UHGV virus genome: UHGV-0134942 | Direction: 5' to 3' (one strand) | Origin: a virus | DNA: 34,876 bases | Shown here: positions 194 to 21,649 of the stretch, piece after piece | Layout: every line of letters starts with the position of its first letter | Position numbering within the stretch: position 1 is the first letter of the stretch | Translations under genes and position numbers: made by a program | The notes under the pieces: model-generated | The model's input: the letters and a program-made list of their open reading frames with translations, nothing else | Told to the model about the DNA's origin: nothing | The model's database searches: none

Positions 194-349
194 TTACCTT
201 TCAGATTCGTAGGCTGTGAAGACAGTGACCTCCGTCTGGCCGGTTCGGATTCGTACCTCGCAGAGGTCTTTCCTCGTTACCAGTGCCGTCACAATGACGG
301 TTAAACAGATGACGATCAGAGCGATTAATATCGCTTTTTGCTGCTTCAT
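194..349 (-). CDS. hok: Hok/Gef-family type I toxin (51 aa), not in the supplied ORF track because it is under 60 aa
   Basis: Manual minus-strand translation gives MKQQKAILIALIVICLTVIVTALVTRKDLCEVRIRTGQTEVTVFTAYESER, which matches the Hok/Gef family (single TM helix, conserved RKDLCEV and TEVxVFTAYES motifs). AAGGAG Shine-Dalgarno lies 9 nt upstream of the ATG at 349. Confidence 0.8.
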   Translation of the reverse strand: MKQQKAILIALIVICLTVIVTALVTRKDLCEVRIRTGQTEVTVFTAYESER

Positions 350-407
350 AGCCTGCTTCTCCTTGACCTTTTGGTCGGTAAGAGGCTAATCTACGTATGC
401 TAAGCAT
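201..407 (-). CDS. Mok-like overlapping reading frame (modulator of killing) covering hok in another frame
   Basis: 68-aa ORF from the track overlaps the hok CDS out of frame and ends 7 nt downstream of the hok stop, as in hok/mok/sok loci. GAGG lies about 8 nt upstream of its ATG. The protein sequence itself is not diagnostic. Confidence 0.35.
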   Translation of the reverse strand: MLSIRRLASYRPKGQGEAGYEAAKSDINRSDRHLFNRHCDGTGNEERPLRGTNPNRPDGGHCLHSLRI

Positions 408-530
408 AGATATTGCCTCAGATTAATGTTAAGCGTCTTGCAGGACGCGTAATGTTATCTGGGGCTTTCTTCTATCTGCTTTTCGGGTAATGCCTGAAGC
501 AGATAGCCTCAAGCACCCGCAACGATTGTA

Positions 531-3331: not shown

Positions 3332-3488
3332 CTTCAACAATGTTTGGCTGTCGATTGTGTCTCCGGTGTTGGGGATGACATTCAGGGCTGGTGCTGGCGT
3401 AGCTGAAGCAACAGGTGCTGGTTTTTCAACATTGGTGATGCTGCCAACTTACTGATTTAGTGTATGATGGTGTTTTTGAGGTGCTCCA

Positions 3489-3764
3489 GTGGCTTCTGTT
3501 TCTATCAGCTGTCCCTCCTGTTCAGCTACTGACGGGGTGGTGCGTAACGGCAAAAGCACTGCCGGACATCAGCGCTATCTCTGCTCTCACTGCCGTAAAA
3601 CATGGCAACTGCAGTTCACTTACACCGCTTCTCAACCCGGTACGCACCAGAAAATCATTGATATGGCCATGAATGGCGTTGGATGCCGGGCAACCGCCCG
3701 CATTATGGGCGTTGGCCTCAACACGATTTTCCGCCATTTAAAAAACTCAGGCCGCAGTCGGTAA
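3489..3764 (+). CDS. insA: IS1 InsA (91 aa)
   Basis: Protein [43 protein letters not shown]... is the canonical IS1 InsA. Confidence 0.95.
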
Positions 3765-4186
3765 CCTCGCGCATACAGCCGGGCAGTGACGTCATCGTCT
3801 GCGCGGAAATGGACGAACAGTGGGGCTACGTCGGTGCTAAATCACGTCAGCGCTGGCTGTTTTACGCGTATGACAGGATACGGAGGACAGTTGTGGCGCA
3901 CGTTTTCGGTGAACGCACTCTGGCCACACTGGAGCGTCTTCTGAGCCTGCTGTCGGCCTTTGAGGTCGTGGTATGGATGACGGATGGCTGGCCGCTGTAT
4001 GAATCACGCCTGAAGGGAAAGCTGCACGTTATCAGCAAGCGTTACACTCAGCGCATTGAGCGACATAATCTGAATCTGAGACAACATCTGGCAAGGCTGG
4101 GACGGAAGTCGCTGTCGTTCTCAAAATCGGTGGAGCTGCATGACAAGGTCATCGGGCATTATCTGAACATAAAACACTATCAGTAA
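3683..4186 (+). CDS. insB: IS1 InsB reading frame (B'); the InsAB' transposase is made by a -1 frameshift from insA
   Basis: 167-aa ORF with the canonical IS1 InsB sequence (…[54 protein letters not shown]…). Confidence 0.9.
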
Positions 4187-4203
4187 GTTGGAGTCACTAC
4201 CTT

Positions 4204-5394
4204 GGATCTGAAGGTAAGGCAAATCTCGATAAGTTGGCTCCGTATTTTGCTGAACTAGAGAATAAATATGGTCTTCCAGAAGGCACTCTTTACGCGATTG
4301 CTGCAACTGAATCTGGTGGTAATCCGTATGCAAAATCCCAAACCGGTGCTCTGGGAATGTTTCAGTTCACGGGGATTGCTCGTGAAGAGACTGGCTTAGC
4401 TGAAGGTGAATCGTTTGATCCTGTGAAATCGGCAGAAGCTGCGGCTCTTCTCATGAGCAAGTATCTGAAGCAAGCCAATGGAGACTTAAACGAGGCCATC
4501 ACTGCATATAACGCTGGGTTTGGCACTATCAATAAGTGGAAAAAAGGCACAGGTGACTTATCGAAAGAAAACCGTGAGTACGCGATCAAGGTCAATACTC
4601 ATCGTGCTCGCTATTTAGGTGGTGAAATCTATACACCTGGAGCAGGAGCACAGGGTGGGGCGCAATATGGAGTGAGGGGACCACTGCCTGATAACGCTGT
4701 TATCGATCAGTCTACTGGCCTGGCGTTTACCCCTAGTGATAGCCCGTTTGAGAAAGGCGGTCTGGTAGACAAAATCGGCAATGCTGTTGGCGTTAACGAT
4801 CTGGTCAACAAATTCATGAATGGCCGGGGTATGCGTCGGGAAGTCGTTCAGGGAACGCTCGAAGAACGTGCACGAGGGAAGGGGACCGCAACAGCAGCTG
4901 GCAATGTGTATGTTGATACTCCGATGCCAGTTGAAGAGGCGCGTCCGGTGACCAGCAACTCAAGTTACTTTGACCAACTCGGCGCACAAATGGGGATTGA
5001 TGGACTATTCGATAAACTCCGCAACTCGCCGGGGATGCGGAAAAATAATGCGCCTGAACCAGCCTCCACGTCCCAGGTGACGACTGCCGCCAACGATTTG
5101 CAGCAACCAACCGGTCGTATGCAGATAGACGGACAGGTTATTAGTGACCTTGGTGGTTCCGGTGCCAAGCCGACAATGCAGTTGGCTGATAATACCGTTT
5201 CACTTGATGGTGAAACGAAGCGGCTGTTTGCGCAGATGACCTCATTACTTGCCAGGATTGAAGAGCACACCAAAGACTCGGCGAAAGGCCAGGGAACTGT
5301 CGTAAAGGTCAGCACGCCTCAGCCGGGCGTTATGCGCACGGTACCACTGTCAATTGATGATCCGTTGATGAATGACTACGCGAGAGTTGATTGA
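4204..5394 (+). pseudogene. sit: 5'-truncated sit-like structural injection transglycosylase (C-terminal about 396 codons, lytic transglycosylase domain)
   Basis: Reading frame is open from the first in-frame codon after IS1 (4204); the track only finds a TTG start at 4234. SLT-domain motifs ATESGGNPYAKSQTGALGMFQF and AYNAG are present. Followed by pmgA/bplA-like genes as in P1. Confidence 0.65.
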
Positions 5395-5750
5395 TGGCCA
5401 ACAATAACGAAATTGATCCTTTGCTGACGCTGGAGTTATCCGGCGTAAAAACGTATGAGTCCCAGGAGGAGGCCTGGGGCGCTCGTTTATATGAGTGGCT
5501 AAACACTTATCAGGGTGAGGTATACGGAGATCCGTCATGGGGCAATGTTTTACCGCAGTTTAAACACGAACCGACCAACTTGTCGCATGTTCAAATTGCG
5601 GTTGAGGCAATGCTGTTGCAAAAACTGACGGTAGATTTATCTGACATACCGATTTCTGGCTTGTCAGTAGCCGAGGGAGATGCTTTTGATAAGTTGAAAA
5701 TATCCATTCGTATCAGGGATATAACTATCACACAGGACGTGGTGCTATGA
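5394..5750 (+). CDS. pmgA: Putative tail/baseplate morphogenesis protein (118 aa)
   Basis: Track ORF; ATG at 5394 overlaps the upstream stop (translational coupling). Name by synteny only. Confidence 0.45.
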   Translation: MANNNEIDPLLTLELSGVKTYESQEEAWGARLYEWLNTYQGEVYGDPSWGNVLPQFKHEPTNLSHVQIAVEAMLLQKLTVDLSDIPISGLSVAEGDAFDKLKISIRIRDITITQDVVL

Positions 5751-7180
5751 GTAAAACAACACCGACTAAAGACAGTATTCGTGCAGAGTTTGAAGAGCTT
5801 GTCGAGAAAGATTCATTCTGGTCGAAGTTTGTCGGCTCTCAATTTGTCTCGATGCTGACATTGTTTATTACCCAGATTGTCTACAGGTGCTTTCAGTATG
5901 CCGATGCGGCGCTGGCTGAAGGCTTTATATCGACCGCGACGCGGCGTTCCTCTATCTTGGCAGCGGCAGAAACGAATAGTTACGTTGGTACCAAGCCAAC
6001 ACCGTCATCGGGGATGATTGAGATCACCGCCACAAGTGAAGATGCCCCAGCGGTAATCCCCAAAAACATGCCTTTAATATCTGACGACCAGTACCCTTAC
6101 ATGACTATGGATGTATGCAGGTTGGTTGACGGCACCGGTACGGTAGAAGTGGCACAGTTGGAAATCCAGGAGGTGACATATACCGTTACGGCAGCCAAAG
6201 AATTTCTGGAAGTCGTGTTATCAAAGGCTCTCACTGCTGTCTGCTATAAGCTGGAAGTATTCGTGACGACCGATGGTAAGACCACGCAGTGGTCTTCCAG
6301 CACTATGTTCCGGTTAGCCGGTAGTAAAAGCCAGGTCTACGTTGAGTTTTATAAACCATCCGAGCAGTTGGGGGTTCGATTCGGTGATGGGCTAATTGGG
6401 CAAATACCGCCAGAAGGCTCGACCATTACACTTAAGGTATGGTGCACCAACGGAGATATAACCTTGGTTGCTGGCCAAAATCTGACGCCTGTCGATTCTG
6501 CGGCTAATTTAGCTAATTTGATTTCAGTTAAGACAACGACACCCATAACCGCAGGTACCGATGCCGAAACAACGGAGATCACACGTAATCGTGCACAATA
6601 TTACCTTGCCTATGATGATCAGGTCGTATGGGGCGGGGACTATACGTATTTTCTGGTGCGTAACATCCCGGGACTGTCCTGGGTAAAGGCATGGGGCGAA
6701 GGCCAGCAAGAGAAATTAGATGGTGCTTATAATATCCGGAATATCAATAAGATATTTATTTCAGGATGGCATCCAAACAAAAGCCAGTCAGAGCTTGAAG
6801 AAATGATCCTGGCTGCCTTTAAGAAGGTGCCGAATGAGTTGAACAAGAAATTCTCGTATAAAGAGGTCAGAAAACTACCCTTTAAGATCACCATCACCGG
6901 GCGGATATCGGCAAGCCTGACCATTGAGAACGTGACTGATGAGCTGAAGTCGGCACTGGAAACAAAATTTGGGCGTGACTCAACTTTCTTTGATCCGAAC
7001 CGTGTCGGCAAGTACATCCTAATCAAGAAAAAAGACGTTTGGGCATTTATCGAAACGCTGGGTTATTTCCGCGACTTTTATCTGGAATTTGTCGAGTGGA
7101 ATGAGTCCAACGGCTTTTACGATTTCGTTTATCTGGATACAGAAAACTCCACCTTTAATATTTCGTATGAGGAGGAGTGA
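5747..7180 (+). CDS. bplA: Baseplate protein (477 aa)
   Basis: Track ORF coupled to neighbours by ATGA overlaps at both ends; position between sit and the tail fibre genes. Name by synteny. Confidence 0.5.
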   Translation: MSKTTPTKDSIRAEFEELVEKDSFWSKFVGSQFVSMLTLFITQIVYRCFQYADAALAEGFISTATRRSSILAAAETNSYVGTKPTPSSGMIEITATSEDAPAVIPKNMPLISDDQYPYMTMDVCRLVDGTGTVEVAQLEIQEVTYTVTAAKEFLEVVLSKALTAVCYKLEVFVTTDGKTTQWSSSTMFRLAGSKSQVYVEFYKPSEQLGVRFGDGLIGQIPPEGSTITLKVWCTNGDITLVAGQNLTPVDSAANLANLISVKTTTPITAGTDAETTEITRNRAQYYLAYDDQVVWGGDYTYFLVRNIPGLSWVKAWGEGQQEKLDGAYNIRNINKIFISGWHPNKSQSELEEMILAAFKKVPNELNKKFSYKEVRKLPFKITITGRISASLTIENVTDELKSALETKFGRDSTFFDPNRVGKYILIKKKDVWAFIETLGYFRDFYLEFVEWNESNGFYDFVYLDTENSTFNISYEEE

Positions 7181-8016
7181 TGCAGCGTTCCTGGTTTAAT
7201 AACCGGCTTACATCAGCTAAGCAAAAGTCATTGCTCTATAAATCATTGGCTGATTTGGTTCAGTCAATGATGGATACCTTTGTTGACCCATGGTTGGAGC
7301 GAATTACCAACCGGAAGTCTATTTTTTCCATGAGCAAGGAGGATCTGGAGACCAGGACAAATGAACTTGGCCAGTTCTTTACTATCAGAACGTCGAACTC
7401 ATCTTCCGTTCCGATGTTGTTACAACAGCGTCTTGATGAGATTCACTTTAAGGGGACTGAACGCCCTATAAACCAGACAATTTACCGCGAATTTAACGGT
7501 ATTTCTGTTTTATGGGATCCGATATATGCACCGGTGGACCTTGAGCGTCATCCCTATGGCACGGTTCTAATACCAGAAAGCACACTGGAGACTACCGGCG
7601 GCACATTCGGCGAGATGTTTCTGACTTCCAGAGGGATGATCAGTATTCCCATAAACGACCTGGCCCGGACAATGGGGATTACTGGCACGATAGATCAGTC
7701 CGCAATTACAGAAGAAATTCTCAGAAAGTTTAATCAGTTCGTAAAGCCTCTACTGCCACTGCATATAGTGTTTGATGGGCTTACGCTCTATTTGTCGGTT
7801 GTTGTAAATGAACAGGCCGACATGATCACTTTGAACGAGATTTCTGATACCGAAAAAGCATTCTGCTGGTTTGAAACTTCGGATACAACTTCGCTTACTG
7901 GAGTTACGTCGATTAGCGCCCCGATCACCGCAACGCCTGGTGGCACTATTGTGAAAGCGACACCTACGTTTGATCGCACACGCGCAGATGATTTGTTGCT
8001 GGATAGCGACGCCTGA
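7180..8016 (+). CDS. Baseplate/tail structural protein (P1 gp16-like, 278 aa)
   Basis: Track ORF 7177..8016; ATG at 7180 overlaps the bplA stop. Confidence 0.5.
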   Translation: MQRSWFNNRLTSAKQKSLLYKSLADLVQSMMDTFVDPWLERITNRKSIFSMSKEDLETRTNELGQFFTIRTSNSSSVPMLLQQRLDEIHFKGTERPINQTIYREFNGISVLWDPIYAPVDLERHPYGTVLIPESTLETTGGTFGEMFLTSRGMISIPINDLARTMGITGTIDQSAITEEILRKFNQFVKPLLPLHIVFDGLTLYLSVVVNEQADMITLNEISDTEKAFCWFETSDTTSLTGVTSISAPITATPGGTIVKATPTFDRTRADDLLLDSDA

Positions 8017-8019
8017 CAA

Positions 8020-8044
8020 TCACCCCGTCCGCAGGGCGGGGTGA
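8020..8044 (+). terminator. GC-rich stem-loop after gp16 (possible attenuator or weak terminator)
   Basis: CACCCCG(8021-8027) pairs with CGGGGTG(8037-8043); weak U-tract downstream. Confidence 0.3.
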
Positions 8045-8094
8045 CAAGTTACTTCTCTTACAATGAGGCTTCACAACATTGATTAGGGAAAATC

Positions 8095-8529
8095 ATGTCT
8101 GACGTCTCAACAAACCTCTATAAGAGTCAGTTGTTGGACTATTACTATCAGCGGCGCGCTGAATCGTCCATTAACAAAGGCTCTCGATTTTTAATCAGCA
8201 AGGCCGTTTTCGGTACCAGTTCACTGGTTACTAAGAAAGGAGATGGCACTTATGAGATTGGAGAACTGCCAAAGGCTTTCGATCTGGCAGAACTGACCAG
8301 TCAATTTTGCACCATCAACCTCGTCCCAACCTACTCAGGCGGGATAATAACTGTCCGAATGGACCTTGATCAAAGCCAGTTGCAGGAAGGGAAAAACTAC
8401 CCATTCAACACTCTGGTTGTTCTGGATAACGAGAACAAGCCAATCGCCATTATTTGTGTCCAGGAAGACTCGCTGTATGTGGGCAAAACATATACCGCAG
8501 TTATGGCCATAAACACGACTACAGCATAA
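8095..8529 (+). CDS. R: Tail fibre-associated structural protein (P1 R-like, 144 aa)
   Basis: Track ORF immediately upstream of the tail fibre gene; stop at 8527-8529. Confidence 0.45.
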
Positions 8530-8540
8530 GGATATGCTTG

Positions 8541-11500
8541 ATGAATGACGTTACAGTTGTCACATCGGTTACTTACCCATCACCCGAGTCGTTGGCTCTG
8601 GTGGCTGATGTGCAATACCACGAACCATATCTGTCAGCCGCGCTAAACCGAAAATTCAGGGGGATTGTTGACCCGGGATTTTATGCCGGTTTCTTACCTA
8701 AGCCTGGCGGTGGGATGAACCTGTTAATCACCTCAGTGGATGGTGATAAAACCGCAGGCGCGGCGTCGGTGGATATTGGTGAATTCTACCAGGTAACTAT
8801 TCAGCAACGTAAGGATATTTCTCTTGCACTTAGTGCAGGCAAGAAATATGCAATTGTGCTGAAGGGAAGATACCTCCTTGGAGAAGATACCTATCAGGTG
8901 AATACCGCGTCACATATTCATGCGGCTGAATTTGTTTCCAGAACCTATACCGATTCATATCAGTTAGGAGATGGGGAGCTGCTTGTTTGTACGGTGAATA
9001 TCCCTGCTGGTGTATCTGCCATTACCCAGGAGATGATTGATACATCCAAGCGTATCAACCGCACGATCGGCATTGATATTTCAGACTCTGTAACCAGTAC
9101 CAGAAGTGATGTTGCTGCGAGTTCGCTGGCAGTTAAAAAAGCCTACGATCTGGCTAAAAGCAAGTATACGGCGCAGGATGCAAGCACAACACAAAAGGGA
9201 TTAGTTCAGCTCAGTAGCGCAACTAACAGCGACAGCGAAACAATGGCGGCTACCCCTAAAGCCGTTAAGTCTGTAAAAGAGCTGGCTGATACCAAAGCGC
9301 CAATAGAAAGCCCGAGTCTGACAGGAACGCCAACCGCGCCGACGGCAGCGCAAGGTACAAACAGCACGCAGATCGCAAATACAGCCTTTGTTAAGGCAGC
9401 TATAACGGCACTTATCAACGGTGCACCTGGCACACTGGATACGCTTAAAGAAATAGCTGCTGCGATCAATAACGACCCGAATTTCAGCACAACTATCAAC
9501 AATGCTCTGGCTCTTAAAGCTCCTTTAGCAAGTCCTGCATTAACGGGAATACCTACTGCGCCTACCGCTGCACAGGGTACGAATAACACGCAGATTGCTA
9601 CGACCGCTTATGTAAGAGCTGCTATCTCTGCATTGGTCGGCTCATCACCTGAAGCTCTTGATACTCTGAATGAGCTTGCAGCAGCACTGGGCAATGACCC
9701 GAACTTTGCGACAACAATGACAAATGCGCTGGCAGGCAAACAGCCTCTGGATGCAACTTTAACCGCGCTCGCTGCCCTTGCGACTGGTGCAAACAAACTG
9801 CCTTATTTCACTGGTAAGGATACGGTAGCGCAGACTGATTTAACGTCAGTCGGTCGCGATATTCTGGCTAAAACAAGCACACTGGCCGTTATCCAATACC
9901 TTGGTTTAAGAGAACTCGGTACCAGCGGTGAAAAGATCCCCCTGTTGAGCACGGCTAACACATGGAGTGCGCGCCAGACTTTCAACGGCGGGATCACCGG
10001 GGCGCTGACAGGGAACGCCGACACCGCGACGAAATTGAAAACAGCACGCACGATTGGCGGTGTGGCATTTGATGGCTCGGCCAATATCAATCTTCCAGGT
10101 GTAAATACAACAGGTAACCAGAACACCACGGGGAATGCTGCTACCGCGACAAAACTTGCGACGGCAAGAAACATCAACGGTGTTAAGTTTGATGGCTCAG
10201 GCGATATCAACATTAATACATTGGTATCTCGTGGCCGAGTTACGGCGTTAAGCGGCTCTACTCAAGGCACTGCTGGCATTCAAATGTACGAGGCGTACAA
10301 CAATAGCTACCCGACCACGTATGGCAACGTATTGCACATGAAAGGTGCGAGTGCTGCTGGTGAGGGCGAGTTGCTTATTGGCTGGAGTGGTACGAGCGGT
10401 GCACATGCGCCAGTTTTCATTCGCTCCCGAAGAGATAACACAGATGCGGCATGGTCTGAGTGGGCACAGGTCTATACATCGAAAGACTCCATACCGGGCG
10501 TAAATACAACGGGCAACCAGAACACAACAGGAAATGCGGCGTCTGCCACGAAATTACAAACGGCAAGAACCATTGGTGGCGTTTCATTTAATGGTACCGC
10601 AAACATCGACCTGCCAGGTGTGAATAAAACAGGTAATCAGAGCACTACTGGCAATGCTGCAACTGCAACAAAACTGCAAACAGCACGCACAATAGGCGGC
10701 GTATCATTCGATGGCTCCGCCAATATCAATCTGCCGGGTGTAAACATTGCTGGTAACCAGAACACAACCGGTAATGCAGCTACGGCTACCAAATTGCTAA
10801 CAGCGCGTACCATTAATGGGGTTTCATTTGACGGTTCTGCGAATATTTCACTGTCACCAGCAAATATTGGTTGCCCGGCATCTCCTACTGGTTGGCTTGT
10901 AACAGGTGATAATGGAGCTTCAATAACAACAGAGCAATTAGTGACTCTGCTACGAGATAATGGTGCTTTTAATGCAAAGGCATGGATAGCGCGTTGTGCC
11001 TGGGCGTATGCAAATAGTGCATCCATACCAGACAGCGAAACAGGATGCGGCATTATTCCACTGGCTGGCGCAGTTATTGAGGTATTTAATAACGGCAGTA
11101 GCTCAAACAATTATACGATTCGTATAACAACGGCAACAACGACAGGTGTCTCTGGCGCACTCACTAATGCGGAGTTTGTCTATGTGTTTAACGGGACGAG
11201 CTATTCACCAGGATGGCGCAGAGCGTATAACACTAAAAACAAGCCTACTGCGGCTGATGTCGGAGCTTTACCACTATCTGGAGGAGCGTTAACTGGCGGA
11301 TTAACTGCTGCTGGCGAGATTATTTCCAAATCGGCGAATGGTCTGCGCATTGCCTACGGAAACTACGGATTCTTTATCCGAAACGATGGTTCAAACACAT
11401 ATTTCATGTTGACCGATTCGGATAACAGCCTAGGAACCTATAATAGGTTAAGGCCGCTTATCATTAACAATGCCAATGGTGCTGTTACGATCGGTAATGG

Positions 11501-12560
11501 ACTCAATGTTACTGGCGGCATCAATGGTAGTTTGAACGGTAATGCTGCAACTGCTACAAAACTTCAGACTGCAAGAAAAATATCCGGTGTTCCATTTGAT
11601 GGTTCTACTGATATCACTTTAACCGCCGCGCATGTGGCTGCTTTTGCCAGAAGGGCAACGGATACATATGCCGATGCGGATGGTGGCGTTCCCTGGAATG
11701 CCGAATCAGGCGCTTACAATGTCACCCGCTCTGGCGACAGCTATATTCTGGTTAACTTCTATACCGGAGTCGGAAGTTGCCGGACATTGCAGATGAAGGC
11801 GCATTACAGAAATGGTGGTCTGTTCTACCGTTCTTCAAGAGACGGTTATGGTTTTGAAGAAGACTGGGCAGAAGTTTATACCTCGAAAAATCTTCCACCA
11901 GAAAGCTACCCAGTCGGCGCACCAATCCCGTGGCCATCAGATACCGTTCCGTCTGGTTATGCCCTGATGCAGGGGCAGACTTTTGACAAATCTGCTTACC
12001 CGAAACTTGCAGCCGCTTATCCGTCAGGCGTGATCCCTGATATGCGTGGCTGGACGATTAAGGGCAAACCTGCCAGTGGTCGTGCCGTATTGTCTCAGGA
12101 ACAGGACGGCATTAAATCGCACACCCACAGCGCCAGCGCATCCAGTACGGATTTGGGGACGAAAACCACATCGTCGTTTGATTACGGTACTAAACCAACG
12201 AATAACACAGGTGCACATACCCACAATGTATCTGGTACTGCAAATAGTGCTGGCGCACATACTCATACCGTTCCATTAAGGAGACCAAACAGTGGAGGTA
12301 TGAATTTCGACTGGCTTGATGGTTCATCAAGTGGCACGGTCGTGGGGAATGGAACAGTGCCTTCTTCTGGTGCACACACCCACTCAGTATCAGGCACTGC
12401 TGCAAGTGCAGGGGCGCATGCACATACAGTTGGTATTGGCGCTCATACGCACTCTGTTGCGATTGGTTCACATGGACATACCATCACCGTTAATGCTGCT
12501 GGTAACGCGGAAAACACCGTTAAAAACATCGCATTTAATTATATTGTGAGGCTTGCATAA
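8541..12560 (+). CDS. S: Tail fibre protein (1339 aa) with internal tandem repeats and a His-rich C-terminal tip
   Basis: Track ORF 8454..12560; the likely start is the ATG at 8541 ([15 protein letters not shown] Shine-Dalgarno upstream, just after the R stop). Two ~74-aa repeats ([26 protein letters not shown]…), at least five copies of a ~40-aa unit ([40 protein letters not shown]), and C-terminal GAHTH/HxH repeats. Confidence 0.85.
9300..9760 (+). repeat. Two ~222-bp in-frame tandem repeats inside the tail fibre gene (phage-fibre repeat)
   Basis: Protein repeats [63 protein letters not shown] and [63 protein letters not shown]. Confidence 0.7.
10006..10860 (+). repeat. Array of ~120-bp in-frame tandem repeats inside the tail fibre gene
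   Basis: Recurrent unit [10 protein letters not shown](Q/A/L)TART/NIxGVxFDGSANIxLPGVNxxGNQ(N/S)TT; a further copy lies near 11527-11625. Confidence 0.7.
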
Positions 12561-13177
12561 TGGCATTCAGAATGAGTGAACAATCACGTACAGTAAAAAT
12601 TTATAACCTGCTGGCCGGAACTAATGAGTTTATTGGTGAAGATGACGCATATATTCCACCTCATACAGGGCTGCCAGCTAATTCTACAGATATCGCCCCA
12701 CCGGAAATTCCTACTGGCTTTGTGGCAGTTTTCAACAGTGAAAATGAATCGTGGAATATTGTTGAAGACCATCGTGGTAAAACGGTCTATGAGGTGGCAT
12801 CGGGGGACGCGTTGTTTATTTCTGAACCCGGACCGCTACCAGAGAATGTCACCTGGTTGTCGCCAGCAGGGGAGTATCAGAAGTGGGACGGCGTATCCTG
12901 GGTGAAGGATGAGGAAGCAGAAAAACTGTTTCGGATACGGGAAGCGGAAGAGAAAAAGGCAAGGTTGATCCAGGAGGCAACAGATAACATCGCAATTCTG
13001 CAGGACGCAGTTAATCTTGAAATAGCAACAAACGAGGAAAATTCACAACTGGACTCCTGGAGAAAATACAGAGTATTAGTGAGTCGAATTGATACCAGTA
13101 CAGCTCCGGATATCGTATGGCCAGAGCTGATGAATCAGGGTTATGTGCGGGAGGACGAGCAGATAACTTCAGACTGA
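12560..13177 (+). CDS. U: Tail fibre assembly chaperone (Tfa/U-like, 205 aa)
   Basis: ATG overlaps the S stop (TAATG); size and position typical of tail fibre assembly proteins; conserved W-KYR-like C-terminal segment ([14 protein letters not shown]). Confidence 0.75.
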
Positions 13178-13704
13178 AATTTAGTGATGAATGTTGAATC
13201 ATCAGGAATATCATGCAATACCAATGCATGAGCACCTATTGTGACATTGTTTCCTATACGCACTTTGCCACCAAGAATGGTGGCATTACAACCAATGGTC
13301 ACATTATCTCCTATAACAATATCCATGTCATTAAATTCCCCGCGAAGTCCAATAGTTACTCCGGGCTTAATTGAACAATTTTCACCGATTGTGACTTTGT
13401 GAGCGATAACAACGCCATTGAGATAAGATATGTCAAACCCTTTCCCTATATTTACCGTTAAGGGAACGGTTACATTGTATTTGTCAAGAATGAAGCGTTC
13501 TATTTTCCCTGCAACCTTTCGCCTGTATCCGCCTTTATCAAAAAGATATTTTGATATGCGCCACCAAAATAAATAACGAACTCTTCTATGTTTTATTGCG
13601 CGAACAATTGCTTTTCGCCAAGAGAAAGGACGCTCGCTACCAATTACTTCATAGTGAATACAGTCTTTAAGTTCATTAATAGTCATATTTCTATTGTTCA
13701 GCAT
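13141..13704 (-). CDS. Hexapeptide-repeat (left-handed beta-helix) acetyltransferase, AT-rich; possible moron (187 aa)
   Basis: Imperfect hexapeptide repeats ([16 protein letters not shown]…[34 protein letters not shown]). Markedly lower GC than the flanking phage genes. Converges on U and overlaps its 3' end by 37 bp. Confidence 0.7.
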
Positions 13705-13769
13705 AATATAATAATGTGACCAATTATTATAATAACTTTAATGGATTATTTCTACTGATTATCCAGTGT

Positions 13770-14700
13770 GTCTGGCGGTTTTCGGTATTATCTGCCGGAA
13801 CCATGCCTCATCCAGCGGGTATTTGCTGCCTGGGTTGTCCGGTTTTTCGGTCACTCCCTCAGGCCTCCGATTCTGGTCACGGCGGGTTTGTTATTTTCCA
13901 GTGCGTCGGATGACCACTGCCGCAACTTCTGCACCATTTTTTGGGAGCGGGATTTCACTCCTACGCAACCTGCGCTTTTTGTGCAGCCTGTTTTGCGTGC
14001 TATCCCGGATTTTTGAGTTTCATTCTGCCTCCATGATCCTATCAGGGACGACACCAATCCACTTAAGCACGATGCCAAGACCATCAAGGAGCTGCGTCAG
14101 AGGCCCAGCACAATGTTCTGCTTGATCGGCATAGGGGGGAGCACAAGGGCTGCGCCCCTGCCACACCACCCGGCATGCGGGTCCGTACCGGGCTTCCTCG
14201 GCTTCTGACGCAATGTCCTGTCAAGAGTCATATCTTCTGGCTTTCCTTCTCGTTCGGCCCTTCGTCGGAGTCCTGACTACTACGGCCTCTGCTGACTTCT
14301 CGCTCCGTCTTACGACGTTGCCCTTTCAGGCATGAGGCGAGAACTCCCCAGGTAAGAACGCGATCCTTCCCCGCACAACCGTCGGATCTGCGCGACTTCG
14401 ACTTGACCACGAAAGCTTCGCAGTGATGTGCCTGCTCGCCTTGCTCCATCGCGCCTCATATCCGATTCTCGTTCATCGGCTCACGGGTTCATTCCGTGCT
14501 TCCTCCCCACGCCCGGTCGCCCTCACGCAGTTGCACTTCATTTCGCTCGCTGTGGTCAGCTCGCGGGAGGGCTTTCACCTCCAAGATCGCGCCCATGCTG
14601 GGCGCACACATCCTCCACGCTCTAAAGGACGTGGAGGATGTCAAGCAACATGACCGGTTGAGAAGTTACTTTGCATACCATTACCTCCTGACAACGTAGG
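13770..14700. other. ~0.9 kb GC-rich, strand-skewed block (pyrimidine-rich on +) without a convincing ORF; candidate structured RNA, long leader or decayed gene
   Basis: All six frames give only short overlapping Pro/Ser/Arg-rich ORFs of 60-120 aa. Contains perfect hairpins at 14589-14605, 14609-14640 and 14684-14703. Lies where P1 carries cin and the invertible C-segment. Confidence 0.4.
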
Positions 14701-14703
14701 AGG
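14684..14703 (+). promoter_or_regulatory. Hairpin pairing the lydA Shine-Dalgarno (AGGAGG) with an upstream CCUCCU
   Basis: CCTCCT(14684-14689), 8-nt loop, AGGAGG(14698-14703); GTG start of the holin-like gene at 14710. Confidence 0.4.
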
Positions 14704-14709
14704 GAACTT

Positions 14710-15039
14710 GTGCTTGACACACAGGAATTAGCTCCAGTTGCTATTGCGCTCCTGCTTTCAGTAATTGGTGGGATAGGCACGTTCCTGATGGATGTCCGAG
14801 ATGGTCGCCAGTCTGGCAATTTGTTGGGATTGGTTACGGAGATCTTTGTTGCAGTGACAGCTGGCGCGGTGGCGTACCTATTGGGGCAACACGAGGGCTG
14901 GGAGTTATCAATTACGTACTTAATGGTAACGATAGCCAGCAATAACGGTCATGAGGTGATTTCAGGGATGAAACGAGTGAATATCGATAGCATTCTGAAT
15001 GTTCTTACAAGTTTGGTGAAAAAGGGAGGTGGGAAATGA
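14710..15039 (+). CDS. lydA: Holin-like membrane protein (109 aa)
   Basis: GTG start with AGGAGG Shine-Dalgarno; hydrophobic helices (LAPVAIALLLSVIGGIGTFLM and EIFVAVTAGAVAYLLG); first gene of the hdf-darA operon, as P1 lydA. Name by synteny. Confidence 0.55.
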   Translation: MLDTQELAPVAIALLLSVIGGIGTFLMDVRDGRQSGNLLGLVTEIFVAVTAGAVAYLLGQHEGWELSITYLMVTIASNNGHEVISGMKRVNIDSILNVLTSLVKKGGGK

Positions 15040-15479
15040 TTGGCTGGGGTGTATGCGTTCTTGCGTTAGCCTTAGCCGATCGCTATTTGCTAAAACGCAA
15101 GGACATCACGCATTTAGAACTTGGTGATGTGGAAGTTAAACAGGGCTTCATCCGGGTGCCGTTCAAATACCGGTCTAAATTCCCGTTTTTGCGCGGCGCA
15201 ACGGTCAGATATTGGATCCGCGATGTTCAGAAGCCAACGACAGTGATTGAAGGCGAACAACGTTGTCTGACGTCGGCTGAACAGGGCGAAAACAGTGAAT
15301 GGTTGTACATACCCACTGAATATATGGGTAAAGGAGAACGGCTGTGGCATTTCAACGTCATGGTTACGCATGGTGACTCGTTCATTAACCCGTTGTATCG
15401 GATTTTCCCTGTTACTCAGCAAATCCGCAGAAGTTACGTAATAAATCTCGCACAGGATGTGTCAGATGACGAAAAATAA
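15036..15479 (+). CDS. lydB: LydB-like lysis regulator (antiholin-like, 147 aa)
   Basis: ATGA overlap with lydA; N-terminal hydrophobic segment. Name by synteny. Confidence 0.5.
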   Translation: MIGWGVCVLALALADRYLLKRKDITHLELGDVEVKQGFIRVPFKYRSKFPFLRGATVRYWIRDVQKPTTVIEGEQRCLTSAEQGENSEWLYIPTEYMGKGERLWHFNVMVTHGDSFINPLYRIFPVTQQIRRSYVINLAQDVSDDEK

Positions 15480-16068
15480 GTATGCAACGGTCGATTTTGA
15501 CCAGGTTAATGAAAAGGGGCTGAAATCCCTTATCGCGGCGATCAATAAAACCGGGGTTACGGTAATTGAGGTTGACTCCAGCAACCGCGCAACAACGAAA
15601 GATGGCGTTAAAGTTAAAACCGCAAAGCTGGTTCTTAACGACGGACAAATTCTTGCCATACAGGTAAACGATACTGGCGATATATCGTCTGTGAAACTGA
15701 ATGGAAAAGCTATTCCTAACGCTCAGTCGCCGGATATCAAGACGCTTGGTACCGTCATGGGACAGGCGGCCCGCAAAAACTCCGCAAAATTCCAGAAATC
15801 ACTGATCGCCAAAGCGAAGCGTGTTGCCAATCCGGTAGACAAGAAACCGGCAGTTAAATCCAACTTTCAGCGCCTGCAAGAAGCAAAACAGCGGAATGCT
15901 CAGGTGGTTGCCGCTTATAAGTCCGCGCAGAATTCGGTGTCTTTCAATCAACAGCAGATCACTGATTTGCGGGCGAAGCTGGATAAGGAGACAGGCCGAC
16001 TCAATAACGAAAAGGCCCGAAATGGCGAACTCAAACGCCGTCTTAAGCAACTGAAAGCAGGAAATTAA
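15457..16068 (+). CDS. hdf: Hdf-like protein (homologue of a DarA fragment, 203 aa)
   Basis: Shares a segment with the downstream 639-aa protein (…KNSAKFQ…, and GQILAIQVNDTGD versus GQTISILFHSPTAE). Position upstream of darA as in P1. Confidence 0.55.
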   Translation: MCQMTKNKYATVDFDQVNEKGLKSLIAAINKTGVTVIEVDSSNRATTKDGVKVKTAKLVLNDGQILAIQVNDTGDISSVKLNGKAIPNAQSPDIKTLGTVMGQAARKNSAKFQKSLIAKAKRVANPVDKKPAVKSNFQRLQEAKQRNAQVVAAYKSAQNSVSFNQQQITDLRAKLDKETGRLNNEKARNGELKRRLKQLKAGN

Positions 16069-16069
16069 C

Positions 16070-17989
16070 ATGGAGCAGTTCAATATCAATAAAGGGGTGA
16101 CGATCAAGCCTGGGCTTGACGTGCTTCCCCCGCCAGTGACTGATGATGAATATCGCGCATTAATGGCCGGTGAGGACCGCTATCTGATGACGGAATCCAA
16201 CACCCTGGAGGAAATCGAGGCTACGTTCTTCTATGACACGCCGATCCACTGGTGTGCTACGGATTTACTGGAGGCGATTAGTTCTACTCGTTTGCAGTTA
16301 CACCGGACCATGCAGGCATTTGTCCGGGCATTGAACCAGAAGCTGAATGGTACCGGAATCTCTGCGGGGAGTGATAAAACGGGGGATGTGGCCCAGAACG
16401 GCGCGCGCGCGATCGGCGGTGCTGAAATTGGCCGGGCACGGAACGTTAACGGGCTGCCGGTCCTGCCAGCCATTATTCCGCTCAGTGATGGTCAGACTAT
16501 CAGCATTCTGTTTCATAGCCCGACAGCGGAAAACCGGATCACCAATAGCGATACGCTGGTTGCTTTCCAGTTCTTACTGAATAAAAAAGACGTTACTCAC
16601 ACCGTTGCTCCGATGAGTGGACGTGATATGACGCTGGCGCAGGTCACCATGAAACTTGCCAACCTTGCAGAGAAAAACTCGGCAAAATTCCAGCGTGCGC
16701 AGAAGAAGAAAAAAGCCCTGGTTGATGAAATAACCCAACTACAGGCTGACAGTGACCAGAAAGAGGATGCCATGAGCGACCTCGCGGATCAGGTGGCAGT
16801 GGTAGAAGGGCAGAAGGCAGATCTGGAGCAGAAAATTAACGCGGTCGCCTCGGAAGCGGATTCTCTTTATGAAGAGAATGAGCGTTTGCAGGCGGAGATT
16901 GATCAGCTCAATCGAACAGGTGGGCGCGATACCATTGCTCCAGTGGCAATAACTGGTGGGCACTCACGCGCGTTGACGGATCGCCTTGCCAGTATCAAAA
17001 ATCGCATGCATATGGACGGTGAAGCGACGCTCAGTAATGGTGCATCAATGAAGCAATTCATTGGGGATGGCGAAGGGTATATCCAGTTAACCGATCCGGA
17101 TGGCAGCGTATACATGATCAAGGCTAAATCCATACAGGGTGTGGACATGGCAGATGCAATCGGCAAGCTGTTTAAAGCCTATAAAGCGGGTAATGTATCG
17201 GAATACCTGGTCCAACCAGAAGAACATAAACCGGAAAACGTCGAACCTGAACCAGCGGAGGATACCGGTAGCTCTTCGCCTGAACCAGAAGTCTCTGTAG
17301 GTGCATATCGATATGCCCTGCAAATGCGTCCGGCGGCCCCTGGCGCAATACCTGAAGGTAACAAAGCAATTCTGCCGCGCCCTGATGAAGGTGACCCGTA
17401 TTATGAATATGCACGCTACGGCATTGCTACTTACGATACCCCGCTTTCTGATCAGCAAATGAGTGAGTACGACCTGAAGTTATTGCCTCGCGAGGATTCT
17501 TTCGATTTCCTGGCGAAGACACTTACTAATGGTCCGTTTGGCAAATATGCACAAAAAGCTCTGGAGCTGGCCACCAGCTCACCAGACGAGTTCCGCGTAA
17601 TGCTGAAAACTCAGTTTCAAAAAACTTTCCCCAATATTGCGTTTCCTGGGGGCGCTGGCACCGAGAAAATGGTGCAGAGCATGATCAATGCATTGCAGGC
17701 CGAAGTCGGTGAGATTACTCAGCCAGAACCGGCCCCGGCACAGCCTGATGAAACGGTTAGCGAAGCAGATGCAGAGGCTAATAAAGCCATTGAATATCTC
17801 AATAACGTGATGGATATGCAAAGCACTGACATGGCGGAGATCCGTAACGCCCGGGGCAATGTCCGGGAAGCGATTGCAGCCCTTCAGGCTGCCGGACGTT
17901 TTGAGGAAAACGAAGAGCTGGTTAACGGCGCAGCTCGCCACCTGGCTGATCTGTTGGTAGCAATCCAGAAAGCGGGGGTAGCGGCATGA
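16070..17989 (+). CDS. darA: DarA-like internal head protein, anti-restriction (639 aa)
   Basis: Size and position match P1 DarA as recalled; central coiled-coil and acidic segments; AGGAAA Shine-Dalgarno before the ATG. Confidence 0.6.
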   Translation: MEQFNINKGVTIKPGLDVLPPPVTDDEYRALMAGEDRYLMTESNTLEEIEATFFYDTPIHWCATDLLEAISSTRLQLHRTMQAFVRALNQKLNGTGISAGSDKTGDVAQNGARAIGGAEIGRARNVNGLPVLPAIIPLSDGQTISILFHSPTAENRITNSDTLVAFQFLLNKKDVTHTVAPMSGRDMTLAQVTMKLANLAEKNSAKFQRAQKKKKALVDEITQLQADSDQKEDAMSDLADQVAVVEGQKADLEQKINAVASEADSLYEENERLQAEIDQLNRTGGRDTIAPVAITGGHSRALTDRLASIKNRMHMDGEATLSNGASMKQFIGDGEGYIQLTDPDGSVYMIKAKSIQGVDMADAIGKLFKAYKAGNVSEYLVQPEEHKPENVEPEPAEDTGSSSPEPEVSVGAYRYALQMRPAAPGAIPEGNKAILPRPDEGDPYYEYARYGIATYDTPLSDQQMSEYDLKLLPREDSFDFLAKTLTNGPFGKYAQKALELATSSPDEFRVMLKTQFQKTFPNIAFPGGAGTEKMVQSMINALQAEVGEITQPEPAPAQPDETVSEADAEANKAIEYLNNVMDMQSTDMAEIRNARGNVREAIAALQAAGRFEENEELVNGAARHLADLLVAIQKAGVAA

Positions 17990-18351
17990 CACTATCAGCT
18001 ATTGAGTTAATGGATCTCAGCGATAAGTTGGATGCTCTGATGTCCAAAGCGGCTACCGCGAGTGGTATGGAGTTGCTGGATATCAGCGATGAAATTGACC
18101 AGATCATGCAACAGATGGGGTACGGCGCGTCCGGCGGTGGTAGTGGCGAGGAAAAACAACCTTCGGAACATGATGGTGTGCCAAAACTGGTTGCTGATTT
18201 CCTGGCTGATAAATTCGTCGATCAGAGCACCGATGCATTTATCGGTACCTTGCAGGATTTGAGTCAATATGTTGGCACATACATCGACCTGGACCAGGTT
18301 AAACAGCACACGGCGGCATGGATAGCCGCCAACATTAAAGAGGCAGCATAA
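17986..18351 (+). CDS. ddrA: DdrA-like protein (121 aa, acidic)
   Basis: ATGA overlap with the darA stop; small acidic protein. Name by synteny. Confidence 0.45.
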   Translation: MTLSAIELMDLSDKLDALMSKAATASGMELLDISDEIDQIMQQMGYGASGGGSGEEKQPSEHDGVPKLVADFLADKFVDQSTDAFIGTLQDLSQYVGTYIDLDQVKQHTAAWIAANIKEAA

Positions 18352-18363
18352 GGCGTAACAGGG

Positions 18364-21351
18364 ATGAGCTTAAGCGATCAGGTGGTAATGGCCACCAGCA
18401 TAGAAACGCTGATCGAGCTGCTAAAGAACCTGCCCGATTATGGGCGGGTTTCGTATGTGGTGACAGCGAAGGGAGACGAGGTAAAAACAGCGTTTGATAT
18501 CGTCGATGCCTCAGCTCTTTTGGTATCCAATACTCTGGATGGGCAAATTAATCCTGACTATCCCCAGGAACTTCAACCGCGCGACCGGACCCGCGCATCC
18601 AGCCTTCTTCAGGTTAACCAGATATCCAAAGATTTGCGGCCTGCTCAGCTTACTGATTCCGGTTTATCCAGCCATGGCGCGCCGATAATTGGTGAGGACA
18701 ATGCCGTTGAGTCAGGTAATGGACGGACCATGGGGATCATCAAAGCCTATCAGGACGGCAATGCGGATCGGTATCGTGAGTACCTGATTGATCATGCGAC
18801 CGAATTCGGCATACGACCTGAAAAGGTTGAATCAATGACGGCTCCGGTACTGGTGCGCCGCCGGTTAACTAAGGTTGACCGCGTTCAGTTTGCCAAGGAC
18901 TCAAATATTTCTGATCTTCAGGAAATGGCAGCCAGTGAAAAGGCTTTTGTTGATGCCGACAGCATAACACCGGCGATGATGGCGCTTTTTAACCCGTCAG
19001 AAAGCGGAGATCTGCTTAGCCGCAGTAATGACGCGTTTATTCGCGGATTTATGACGCAAGTTGGTGCCACACAGGCGGCTGGCCTTGTAACTGAAGATGG
19101 GCGACCAACACGGCAACTTGTAGACCGTATACAAAACGCGATCTTTGCCAAGGCATATAAGGATGCGCGCCTGGTAAGGATGGTTGCAGAAGAACCTGAT
19201 CCGGATATGCGTAATGTTCTGACGGCGCTTAATGCGGCAGCCAATGATTTTGTCCAGATGCAGGCTTTATCAGGAGAAGCGCACAAGCAGGCTGTGACAA
19301 CTATTGTTGATGGCATTGAGACAGCGGATAGCCTCGATAAAAAGGCGCTGGCGGCATTGAAAGATGCGGTAGACCTGGTAAGGCAATCGAAGGAGTCAGG
19401 CCAGCATATTACCGATGTTATTGCTCAGGGGGATATGTTCAGCGAAACGGCCCCGGAAGTGAAAGCACTCGCGTTGTTCATCGTCGCGAATAACCGTAGC
19501 GCGAAGCGTATGGCCACCGCCTTTAAGTTGATGGCTCAACGTATCAATGATGAGTTACAGCACCAGGGCCAGGCGCTGGGGGATATGTTTGGCGGCGGCG
19601 ATGTGTCGTTACAGGATATCCTTCGCCAGGTGTCTCAGGAACTGGAAAACGAAGGCATGCAAGGGATATCCGGCGGTCTTTTCGAGTCCGTTTCCGGCGG
19701 TAGTTACAACGGTGTTGCTCCGTATACCAGTTTGCTATTACATCGGGCATCCGGCATCAAAGACATTATTCATCTGATCAGGCTGCTTTCCCGCACAGAT
19801 CCCCAGGATGAACAGCTTGTACAAGTGCTTGCGCATTTTGTTCGAATGCCTGTTGCCGACGTGAAAAAATGGTGCCGATTATTCGGTATCAGCAATTCGT
19901 TACTTCGCGGCTTGTTAAATCACGCATCCTCCCTTGGGCGCGATGGCTTTGACGAGATAGCGCAGGCGATAAAAAACGGAGATATGCCACCAGCTATTGA
20001 CTGGTTTTCCATTCGCCCAACCAGGGTGAAAGCATTCCTTAGCGCGGCGCATTCGGCATCACCATTGGCAGAAATGGTTCAGAGGTTGTCGCTCATATTC
20101 ACAGACCATACCGCGTTGGGTGATCTGACTCTGGACGAGATGAAAGAAGCCTCCATTCAGTGGGCCGATCAACAAAATGAGGTTAACTCAGACTTCTTGC
20201 CAGCATTCAGGAAGGCCGTTAGTAAAGCGGATGATGCCCGTGGAATTCTGAAGGCATTTAAGGCATTGCAAAGTCGTGTTAATAAACATGTCGGTGATAT
20301 CGATGGGGTAACGGCGGAAGGCCGGGATATCCTTCAAGAGCACGGCATAACGCCAGAGTTTATTGATGAGATCAGGACTGATATGCAGCGTGAGGTCGTA
20401 TCGTCCCTGCAAATCGTAGCCAGAGCGTTGGCGGATGCTAATCCGAAGAGTGCGGCCATTGTTAACCGGGTTATTGGTGATATTGAAGCATCGGAGGGCA
20501 TGGGGGCGCTGAAACTCTTCCTTTCGCGAGCGTTTAATCCTAACGGCAATATTCTCCCTGGCATTATTGGTGAGGCTAAAAAGTATGTCAGTGAAGAAGA
20601 ACTTGAGCAGCTTGACCAACTACTTAAGCGATTCTCATATAACCCGCAGACACGCTGGCAAATGAATCAGCGAAGTATGGGTTCGGTCCACGAGAAAGTG
20701 TTATCTGCCATGAACAGTGCGATCGCCAACTCATCCGTATCTGAAGAAAAAGCTCTTGAGTGGGCCGACTCTTTTATCACGGAAGAAGTGGAAGAAGCCC
20801 GCGCTGGACAGAATGGTGGGATAAACCTGCGCAAGGAACTTGCTGATATTTATCGCCTGACTGGCGGGAAAATATCGACCTTATCAAAGGTGGTTCACCA
20901 CCAGGGAAGGGCATATGCAAATCTAAATGGTGTTGTTGCTGTCAATTTGAACGATGAAAATGCAAGTGCACTGTGGCACGAGCTGGGTCATCATCTTGAG
21001 TACAGTAACCCCGGTTTGTTAGAGAAAGCCCGGTCATTCCTGAAGGCCAATGTTGAAGGGGGTAAGCCATCTTTCGTCAATATCGGTGGGCGTGGCAAGC
21101 CTGAATGGTGCTTCAGATCTCGATTGAGTAATATTTATATGGCGAAGGTATACCCGCCAGTCTCAGTGAGTAACTCCGGGAAAATTCGGCAGAAATCACC
21201 GACTATTTCCAAAACGTCAGCAACGGAAGTATTCTCTATGGCTCTTCAGTTGTATCATGACAAAGAGGCCGCTGCCGCATCACTGATGAATGGTGACGGA
21301 TTGCTGGAACTGTTATTAGGTGTGGCAAAGGAGCTAAATAATGCAGATTAA
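18364..21351 (+). CDS. ddrB: DdrB-like large protein of the Dar module (995 aa)
   Basis: Long ORF co-oriented with darA; name by synteny and size. Confidence 0.55.
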   Translation: MSLSDQVVMATSIETLIELLKNLPDYGRVSYVVTAKGDEVKTAFDIVDASALLVSNTLDGQINPDYPQELQPRDRTRASSLLQVNQISKDLRPAQLTDSGLSSHGAPIIGEDNAVESGNGRTMGIIKAYQDGNADRYREYLIDHATEFGIRPEKVESMTAPVLVRRRLTKVDRVQFAKDSNISDLQEMAASEKAFVDADSITPAMMALFNPSESGDLLSRSNDAFIRGFMTQVGATQAAGLVTEDGRPTRQLVDRIQNAIFAKAYKDARLVRMVAEEPDPDMRNVLTALNAAANDFVQMQALSGEAHKQAVTTIVDGIETADSLDKKALAALKDAVDLVRQSKESGQHITDVIAQGDMFSETAPEVKALALFIVANNRSAKRMATAFKLMAQRINDELQHQGQALGDMFGGGDVSLQDILRQVSQELENEGMQGISGGLFESVSGGSYNGVAPYTSLLLHRASGIKDIIHLIRLLSRTDPQDEQLVQVLAHFVRMPVADVKKWCRLFGISNSLLRGLLNHASSLGRDGFDEIAQAIKNGDMPPAIDWFSIRPTRVKAFLSAAHSASPLAEMVQRLSLIFTDHTALGDLTLDEMKEASIQWADQQNEVNSDFLPAFRKAVSKADDARGILKAFKALQSRVNKHVGDIDGVTAEGRDILQEHGITPEFIDEIRTDMQREVVSSLQIVARALADANPKSAAIVNRVIGDIEASEGMGALKLFLSRAFNPNGNILPGIIGEAKKYVSEEELEQLDQLLKRFSYNPQTRWQMNQRSMGSVHEKVLSAMNSAIANSSVSEEKALEWADSFITEEVEEARAGQNGGINLRKELADIYRLTGGKISTLSKVVHHQGRAYANLNGVVAVNLNDENASALWHELGHHLEYSNPGLLEKARSFLKANVEGGKPSFVNIGGRGKPEWCFRSRLSNIYMAKVYPPVSVSNSGKIRQKSPTISKTSATEVFSMALQLYHDKEAAAASLMNGDGLLELLLGVAKELNNAD

Positions 21352-21649
21352 AATCGCAGCGCCATTAGGCGGAGATGCCATTATCGAATTTGATGATAAT
21401 GAAGAAGTTTCCGGGCGTTTAAGCATTATCTCCGGTGACATTACCGAGGACATGATCGCTGAAGCCATAGCTGGAGCAAATCCCAATAGCTATATGGGAT
21501 TCGTTAACACCCTTGATGCTCCCGCAAGTGATGTTCTCCGAACGCTGCATCTTTACGCTGGCTGGTTTGTTGATTGGCCAGCAGTAGATGGTGGCGATGA
21601 GGACGACGACGATGATTTTGGTGATCATGTAGACCAGATCGTATATTGA
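21341..21649 (+). CDS. Small acidic hypothetical protein (102 aa)
   Basis: Overlaps the ddrB 3' end by 11 nt; C-terminal DGGDEDDDDDFGD; followed by a terminator. Confidence 0.45.
   Translation: MQIKIAAPLGGDAIIEFDDNEEVSGRLSIISGDITEDMIAEAIAGANPNSYMGFVNTLDAPASDVLRTLHLYAGWFVDWPAVDGGDEDDDDDFGDHVDQIVY

Follow-up and report, generated by a model that had tools for sequence, protein, structure and literature searches.

A tail-fibre gene whose 3' end, on the plus strand, carries HxH repeats lies in UHGV-0134942, the 34,876-nucleotide stretch of DNA analysed here and called the window. This leads to the question of what the histidines do in the end of the fibre, which part of that end recognises the host, and whether the end can be switched for another. 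Our reading, to which we assign a probability of about 0.9, is that the fibre ends, over its last ~215 residues, in a receptor-binding tip of the T4 gp37/lambda Stf type, that the HxH motifs form its scaffold, that a short head is the likely determinant of specificity, and that a switch has been lost from the locus. The observations underneath it are homology, the register of the motifs, the pattern of conservation, and the lack of cin, of cixL and of any alternative cassette.

Seven HxH motifs were found in the needle region at 12120-12479 on the plus strand, at aa 1194, 1226, 1240, 1279, 1293, 1302 and 1311, and are predicted to be axial metal sites. They hold 14 of the 21 histidines of the whole fibre protein. 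Shuffling of the whole protein (20,000 shuffles) gave a mean of 0.3 HxH motifs and at most three in any 126-residue stretch, and when only the last 150 residues were shuffled with their 14 histidines kept, seven motifs were reached in one of 20,000 shuffles. The clustering is far above chance. The Pfam family PF03335 (Phage_fiber), a curated 14-residue repeat, matched six stretches with 39.5 bits against a cut-off of 20. These repeats are preceded by a Collar domain (PF07484; 48.2 bits, cut-off 24; E 1e-12) at 11916-12059 on the plus strand, corresponding to aa 1126-1173, which aligns to the start of the ordered part of the gp37 tip.

A phmmer search of the sequences in the Protein Data Bank identified the T4 gp37 tip, chain 2XGF_A, with an E value of 3.8e-87 (query 81-299 against chain 27-242). 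The fibre tip and the crystallised tip (PDB ID: 2XGF, residues 785-1026) are identical at 147 of 216 positions (68%), and they share the Collar, the seven HxH motifs and a downstream chaperone gene. Each HxH pair of the fibre corresponds one-to-one to a pair in T4 gp37, namely His 883/885, 915/917, 929/931, 966/968, 980/982, 989/991 and 998/1000. The spacing of the motifs is 32/14/39/14/9/9 in the window fibre compared with 32/14/37/14/9/9 in gp37, and three motifs precede the head and four follow it, as in the gp37 register. The sole difference in length is two additional residues between motifs 3 and 4, that is, in the head. The C-terminal 40 residues are almost identical in the two proteins, and divergence is confined to the head, which in the window fibre is not only two residues longer but also unrelated in sequence to that of T4. 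The original prediction had placed HxH repeats at 12110-12490, likened them to metal-coordinating repeats of other long tail fibres and named T4 gp37-type tips for comparison. The seven motifs fall within that interval, all peptides that it quoted are present, and the comparison bears it out as far as alignment can: the seven motifs align with the iron-binding motifs of gp37 in the same register, apart from the two extra head residues.

In T4 gp37, seven iron ions are coordinated by HxH pairs (PMC11705849). Such iron sites are octahedral and built from three symmetry-related copies of the motif, and they recur in pyocin fibres and P2-type spikes (PMC6116203). Predicted metal binding by the HxH array of the window fibre is strongly supported by this homology. 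Three chains would form the collar, extend as a thin six-stranded beta needle, make the distal head and run back. HxH motifs 1-3 would lie on the outgoing strands and motifs 4-7 on the strands after the head, so that at each of seven levels three HxH pairs, or six histidines, would hold one axial metal ion. In T4 the metal is iron in octahedral coordination, and in the window fibre the ions would hold the needle together, with the histidines as structural scaffold and not as the part that recognises the host. A single-chain AlphaFold2 prediction of the last 219 residues, made with a 56-sequence alignment, gave a model too poor for use (pLDDT 52.6, pTM 0.18), as expected for an intertwined obligate trimer, which we infer the tip to be.

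The tip bears every sequence-level hallmark of the T4 gp37/lambda Stf family, and with regard to its HxH and metal feature, which is already well known, it is an ordinary member. Lambda (Ur-lambda) Stf is 49% identical over the last 136 residues (tblastn) and shares the stf-tfa gene pair. The lambdoid phages Turner, mEp332 and ev099 show ~91% nucleotide identity to the window over the flanks of the tip and most of tfa. Unlike lambda, a lambdoid siphovirus, the host element in the window is a P1-like myovirus plasmid. The last 150 residues of the fibre are matched in 539 phage records, and part of the tip-tfa module in 3833 of 5426 complete E. coli genomes.

An alignment of tips from T4 and from the 120 top-scoring database homologues comprised 110 distinct sequences, in which the 14 HxH histidines are 95-100% conserved; as all 120 homologues are at least 60% identical, this sample is biased toward close relatives. 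Among the 110 tips, the entropy per alignment column stays at 0.1-0.6 bit in the collar and along the two strands of the needle, rises to 2.3-2.7 bits at aa 1241-1270 and is 1.25 bits at aa 1271-1280. The hypervariable head segment at 12267-12368 on the plus strand (aa 1243-1276) lies between the third and the fourth HxH motif. T4 uses OmpC and LPS as receptors, and substitutions that alter this use are G938V, T939I, V941E, G943S, A955E and changes at Y953, with Y949 as a further candidate; the residues concerned sit on the top or the lateral surface of the gp37 head domain (PMC5221442). In the alignment to gp37, the T4 host-range sites 938-955 all map into the variable block of the window fibre. 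The 'T4- and lambda-based RBP family', with more than 200 members, has likewise been described as diverging around the specificity domain and as having a chaperone gene next to the fibre gene (PMC9659904). Because the HxH motifs are near-invariant, and because both the variation and the T4 host-range sites fall into the head, the HxH array is regarded as a conserved scaffold and the head loop as the likely specificity determinant. Judged from these alignments, the ~34-residue head at aa 1243-1276 is most likely what recognises the host. The original prediction had assigned host range to the histidine-rich tip. For the tip as a module this stands, whereas the HxH repeats are its most conserved part and the variable part is the head.

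A role of the histidines in recognition would be retained if the iron-loaded HxH array were itself the ligand, a 'Trojan horse' that mimics a siderophore complex and targets an iron-uptake receptor. This has been discussed for HxH-bearing fibres (PMC11705849), yet for the window fibre it is highly improbable. The iron of HxH sites lies on the fibre axis (PMC6116203), so the metal should be enclosed and not exposed, and the T4 receptors named above are OmpC and LPS. Moreover, the HxH strands are near-invariant across differing heads, and an invariant element cannot explain differences in specificity. The head remains the preferred candidate for receptor binding. Its allele in the window is matched in only one phage record, the uncharacterised vB_EcoM-613R2, and no lambdoid phage in the collection shares it.

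The tip is the end of the 1339-residue product of a chimeric tail-fibre gene at 8541-12560 on the plus strand. The gene is intact, and its RefSeq copies are annotated 'phage tail protein'. The open reading frame extends over 8454-12560, and the real start is the ATG at 8541, in agreement with the RefSeq CDS of an identical plasmid copy. Pfam domains of the protein are Phage_fiber_2, Gp34_trimer and Collar, and its matches in the Protein Data Bank are Mu S, T4 gp34 and T4 gp37. Its mosaic consists of the constant part of the P1 fibre (Sc), a shaft similar to P1 Sv with extra repeats of ~38 residues, Mu S-like and T4 gp34-like modules and the gp37/lambda Stf-type tip; unlike in T4, the tip is thus fused to a P1 fibre and not to a gp37 shaft. 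In BLASTP the fibre is 85% identical to P1 S over 725 aligned columns, and the first ~490 residues are near-identical. These N-terminal ~490 residues, which equal P1 gpS, would dock the fibre on the P1 baseplate. Minus-strand open reading frames inside the gene were rejected as by-products of repetitive coding sequence rich in Ala, Thr and Gly.

Upstream of the fibre gene the arrangement is that of P1. The late promoter LPs at 8046-8064 on the plus strand, with the -22 box AAGTTACTT and the -10 box TACAAT, aligns to the annotated P1 LPs with one mismatch, located between the two boxes. It drives the R-S-tfa fibre operon, and the chimeric fibre would be expressed from it. Gene R at 8095-8529 on the plus strand, which encodes P1 gpR, a tail-fibre structural or assembly protein, has the position and size of R in P1, and its region is 100% identical to that of the plasmid NZ_CP062905.1.

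Downstream, the fibre stop codon and the ATG of tfa overlap by one nucleotide (TAATG). The gene at 12560-13177 on the plus strand encodes a tail fibre assembly chaperone of 205 residues that matches Pfam Caudo_TAP (PF02413) with an E value of 2.8e-39; in contrast to the T4 chaperone, it is of the lambda Tfa type. Tfa is probably translationally coupled to the fibre and would act as a chaperone for folding of the trimer. The next gene, at 13141-13704 on the minus strand, encodes a left-handed beta-helix (hexapeptide) acetyltransferase that matches Pfam Hexapep and is similar to serine acetyltransferase in the Protein Data Bank, with scores under every NCBIfam cut-off. It converges on tfa with an overlap of 37 nucleotides, and the trio of stf, tfa and acetyltransferase is also present in vB_EcoM-613R2 and in the P1-like phage JL22.

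The presence of tfa leads to the question whether Tfa, and not the fibre head, is the adhesin, staying at the distal end like T2-type gp38 or Mu U and contacting the receptor there. In its C-terminal part, Tfa matches Mu U, a protein co-crystallised with the Mu fibre S (PDB 5YVQ, chain 5YVQ_B), and the stretch 12432-13124, covering the last 42 codons of the fibre and most of tfa, has 78% nucleotide identity to JL22, so Tfa diverges too. On the other hand, the family varies most sharply in the fibre head, and the only Pfam match of the downstream protein is Caudo_TAP, with matches to the gp38-adhesin family and to NCBIfam absent. In T4, structurally the nearest relative, gp38 is an assembly chaperone, and the host-range mutations lie in the gp37 head (PMC5221442, PMC9659904). 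A T2/T6/S16-type gp38 adhesin system was rejected on the grounds that the downstream protein is Caudo_TAP, and an adhesive Tfa in general is unlikely. The preferred reading keeps the head as the likely receptor-binding part and Tfa as the predicted chaperone.

The origin of the fibre in a P1-type locus bears on whether the tip is fixed. According to the P1 annotation, the distal part of the fibre lies in the C segment, which is inverted by Cin between cixR, a site within S, and cixL, a site adjacent to cin. The window contains an orphan cixR at 9888-9915, inside the fibre gene at codons ~450-458 (..IQYLGLRE..), and this 28-mer is identical to the sequence spanning the annotated P1 cixR. A search of the window with up to five mismatches to the 26-mer found no second cix site and no inverted copy. 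With up to eight mismatches one more match appeared, which was weak and taken as chance, and matches to the 12-nt core at 15548 and 21006 were discarded because their flanks are unrelated to cix. The same site search identified cixR and an inverted cixL in JL22 and in MH422554, both of which keep cin. A tblastn search of the window with P1 Cin returned only a 14-residue noise match (E 2). Significant inverted repeats were absent from the window, as were an inverted alternative fibre 3' end and an inverted alternative chaperone. In a complete plasmid with an identical fibre, Cre is annotated but no serine invertase, and two further near-identical plasmid copies are arranged alike in the ~6 kb inspected on each side, where annotation of an invertase is likewise absent. 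Thus none of the three elements of a Cin-type invertible system (an invertase, two inverted sites and an inverted alternative cassette) was found, and a residual inversion system was rejected for want of cin, cixL and the alternative cassette.

The place of P1 U'-Sv'-cixL-cin-lydC is occupied in the window by non-coding filler at 13705-14642, which includes, on the minus strand, the 5' portion of a group II intron. The intron fragment has GTGCG at 14607-14603 and matches Rfam RF02001 and RF01998 (D1-D4) at 14526-14257, and it is preceded by a perfect hairpin of 11 bp. Homology to the P1 backbone resumes at 14643, at the end of lydC. A diversity-generating retroelement was also considered and rejected: this intron fragment is the sole trace of a retroelement, the stretch 13705-14642 holds no reverse-transcriptase open reading frame, and repeat searches gave no pair of template and variable repeats. 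Compared with P1, the first ~490 residues of the fibre (Sc), gene R, LPs and cixR are of P1 type and the flanking backbone is ~97% identical, whereas the distal two thirds of the fibre are replaced, U, U', Sv', cixL, cin and lydC are absent, and switching is lacking.

JL22 (ON018986.2) is a further close comparison, a P1-like phage-plasmid with a P1 backbone in which a gp37-type tip, tfa and a hexapeptide 'serine acetyltransferase' replace Sv-U, a substitution already noted by its authors (PMC9603915). Unlike the window, however, JL22 keeps U'-Sv', cixL, cin and lydC, and its invertible segment holds the gp37-type tip, tfa and the acetyltransferase, so that this tip is one of two alternatives. 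The JL22 tip also differs in having six HxH motifs and another head, and its fibre has 1006 residues compared with 1339.

A tip that is still switched by a Din-family invertase acting in trans, such as Pin of e14 or the Cin of a P1 in the same cell, would need a cryptic second site as partner for the orphan cixR. The intact cixR, identical to the P1 site, and the gp37-type tip inside a working-looking invertible segment in JL22 are compatible with this, but a second site is absent at the five-mismatch threshold. Furthermore, what lies downstream is an acetyltransferase gene and an intron fragment, not an inverted fibre end and chaperone, and any inversion would merely truncate the fibre. Such switching is therefore scarcely credible. 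The locus descends from the Cin-invertible C segment of P1, of which only cixR was kept. With the alternative cassette lost along with cixL, cin and lydC, the tip is locked in one orientation. The tip is fixed in this element, as a locked derivative of a once-switchable P1-type locus. The claim in the original prediction that the tip is fixed, for lack of an inversion system, accordingly holds for the element in the window; what it missed is the once-switchable origin, recorded in the orphan cixR and in relatives that keep cin.

A more specific history can be proposed tentatively. A Cin-switchable P1 fibre locus may have been locked permanently with a gp37-type tip whose head allele is uncharacterised, through a deletion that removed U'-Sv'-cixL-cin-lydC and was linked to a group II intron of the terminator-targeting (class C-like) kind. 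The result would be a lineage of single-receptor specialists whose receptor is unlike those of P1 S/S' and of T4. The locked lineage is represented in at least 31 complete E. coli genomes.

The window as a whole is a P1-like phage-plasmid that shows ~97% identity to P1 along most of the sequence. E. coli plasmids of ~95-105 kb match its tip-tfa stretch 11661-13177 at 100% identity, and one of these plasmids is 99.9% identical to the stretch 4201-21647. To the left of the latter, an IS1 at 3434-4201 connects the inside of ant1 with codon ~600 of sit. Compared with NZ_CP062905.1, ~7.0 kb are absent, comprising part of ant, icd, pmgC, the tail tube gene tub, pmgB and the 5' 599 codons of sit. The IS1/sit junction is shared by no record in the collections of E. 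coli genomes and plasmids, which suggests that the deletion next to IS1 is recent and private. This copy may be tail-defective, and its intact fibre would then be unused, unless the missing segment is located elsewhere on the replicon.

The fibre could accordingly be a relic in a tail-defective plasmid, an intact gene that has no current role in infection and would persist only because its descent is recent or because a co-resident P1-like phage complements the defect. The IS1 abutting sit, the loss of tub and most of sit along with the rest of the missing segment, and the private junction all point in this direction. However, only 34.9 kb of the replicon are visible, and inversion or transposition mediated by IS1 could have moved the segment. 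The fibre, tfa and the promoter show no damage, and apparently complete P1-like plasmids carry copies with 100% identity to them. We consider a relic possible but somewhat doubtful. It concerns the current use of the fibre and leaves the identity and the working of the tip, as a gp37-type tip with HxH scaffold and variable head, unchanged.

P1-like elements with gp37-type tips are already described. Specific to the window are the uncharacterised head allele, the orphan cixR and the loss of the switch marked by the intron. P1-like phage-plasmids carry antibiotic-resistance genes and transduce, and the receptor of the fibre sets how far they spread. The head at aa 1243-1276 offers a precise target for efforts to engineer host range or to map the receptor. 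If the proposed history is true, the locked lineage would show, in a case from nature, how a phage-plasmid that was a generalist with two host ranges became a single-receptor specialist.

The tail-fibre gene contains a crossover site for the Cin recombinase, cixR (9888-9915), with the same sequence as cixR of P1. Neither a partner cix site nor the invertase gene cin was found in the window. The orphan cixR is a relic of a locus that was once invertible.

Where P1 has U'-Sv' (the alternative fibre cassette), cixL, cin and lydC, the window instead has a remnant of a group II intron. Its 5' part lies on the minus strand (14257-14640), with the sequence GTGCG at 14607-14603 and Rfam matches to domains D1-D4 at 14526-14257, and no reverse-transcriptase ORF was found in the remnant. 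It is immediately preceded by a perfect 11-bp hairpin (14640-14610), similar to those targeted by terminator-seeking class C introns. Among complete E. coli genomes, just 31 carry the whole ~1 kb spacer with the intron remnant.

In the P1-like relative JL22 (ON018986.2), a gp37-type tip, the chaperone gene tfa and an acetyltransferase gene are located between cixR and an inverted cixL (13573-20940, JL22 coordinates), and both U'-Sv' and cin are still present. The JL22 tip has six HxH histidine motifs, and a [10 protein letters not shown] stretch is duplicated in it; this tip is apparently one of two alternatives between which JL22 can switch. An acetyltransferase gene was also found alongside a gp37-type tip in vB_EcoM-613R2. 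In the window, a hexapeptide (LbH) acetyltransferase is encoded on the minus strand (13141-13704), convergent with tfa, with a 37-nt overlap between the two genes. Its annotation reads serine acetyltransferase, although it scores below all NCBIfam cut-offs, its best matches being EpsC, CysE and WcaB; it could be a moron that modifies surface polysaccharide.

The fibre exceeds its P1 counterpart by 352 aa, in part because of added shaft repeats: a repeat of ~38 aa (..[28 protein letters not shown]..) occurs in six copies (~10000-11650, aa ~490-1035), compared with two in P1 gpS. The many minus-strand ORFs at ~10000-11650 are by-products of the repetitive shaft coding sequence and were rejected as genes.

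Elsewhere in the window, a sok antitoxin RNA (344-518, minus strand; Rfam, 114 bits) adjoins repL and marks a predicted hok/sok-type post-segregational killing locus. A 2255-aa ORF (26981-33748, plus strand) is the size of P1 DarB, and for its counterpart in the related plasmid the annotation gives an Eco57I-type restriction-modification methylase domain protein.

An IS1 element (3434-4201) is flanked by the interior of ant1 on one side and by codon ~600 of sit on the other, a junction shared by 0 records in the E. coli and plasmid collections. Comparison with the closest plasmid, NZ_CP062905.1, showed that ~7.0 kb is absent, including part of ant, icd, pmgC, tub, pmgB and 599 codons at the 5' end of sit. 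With this segment missing, the element may be tail-defective.
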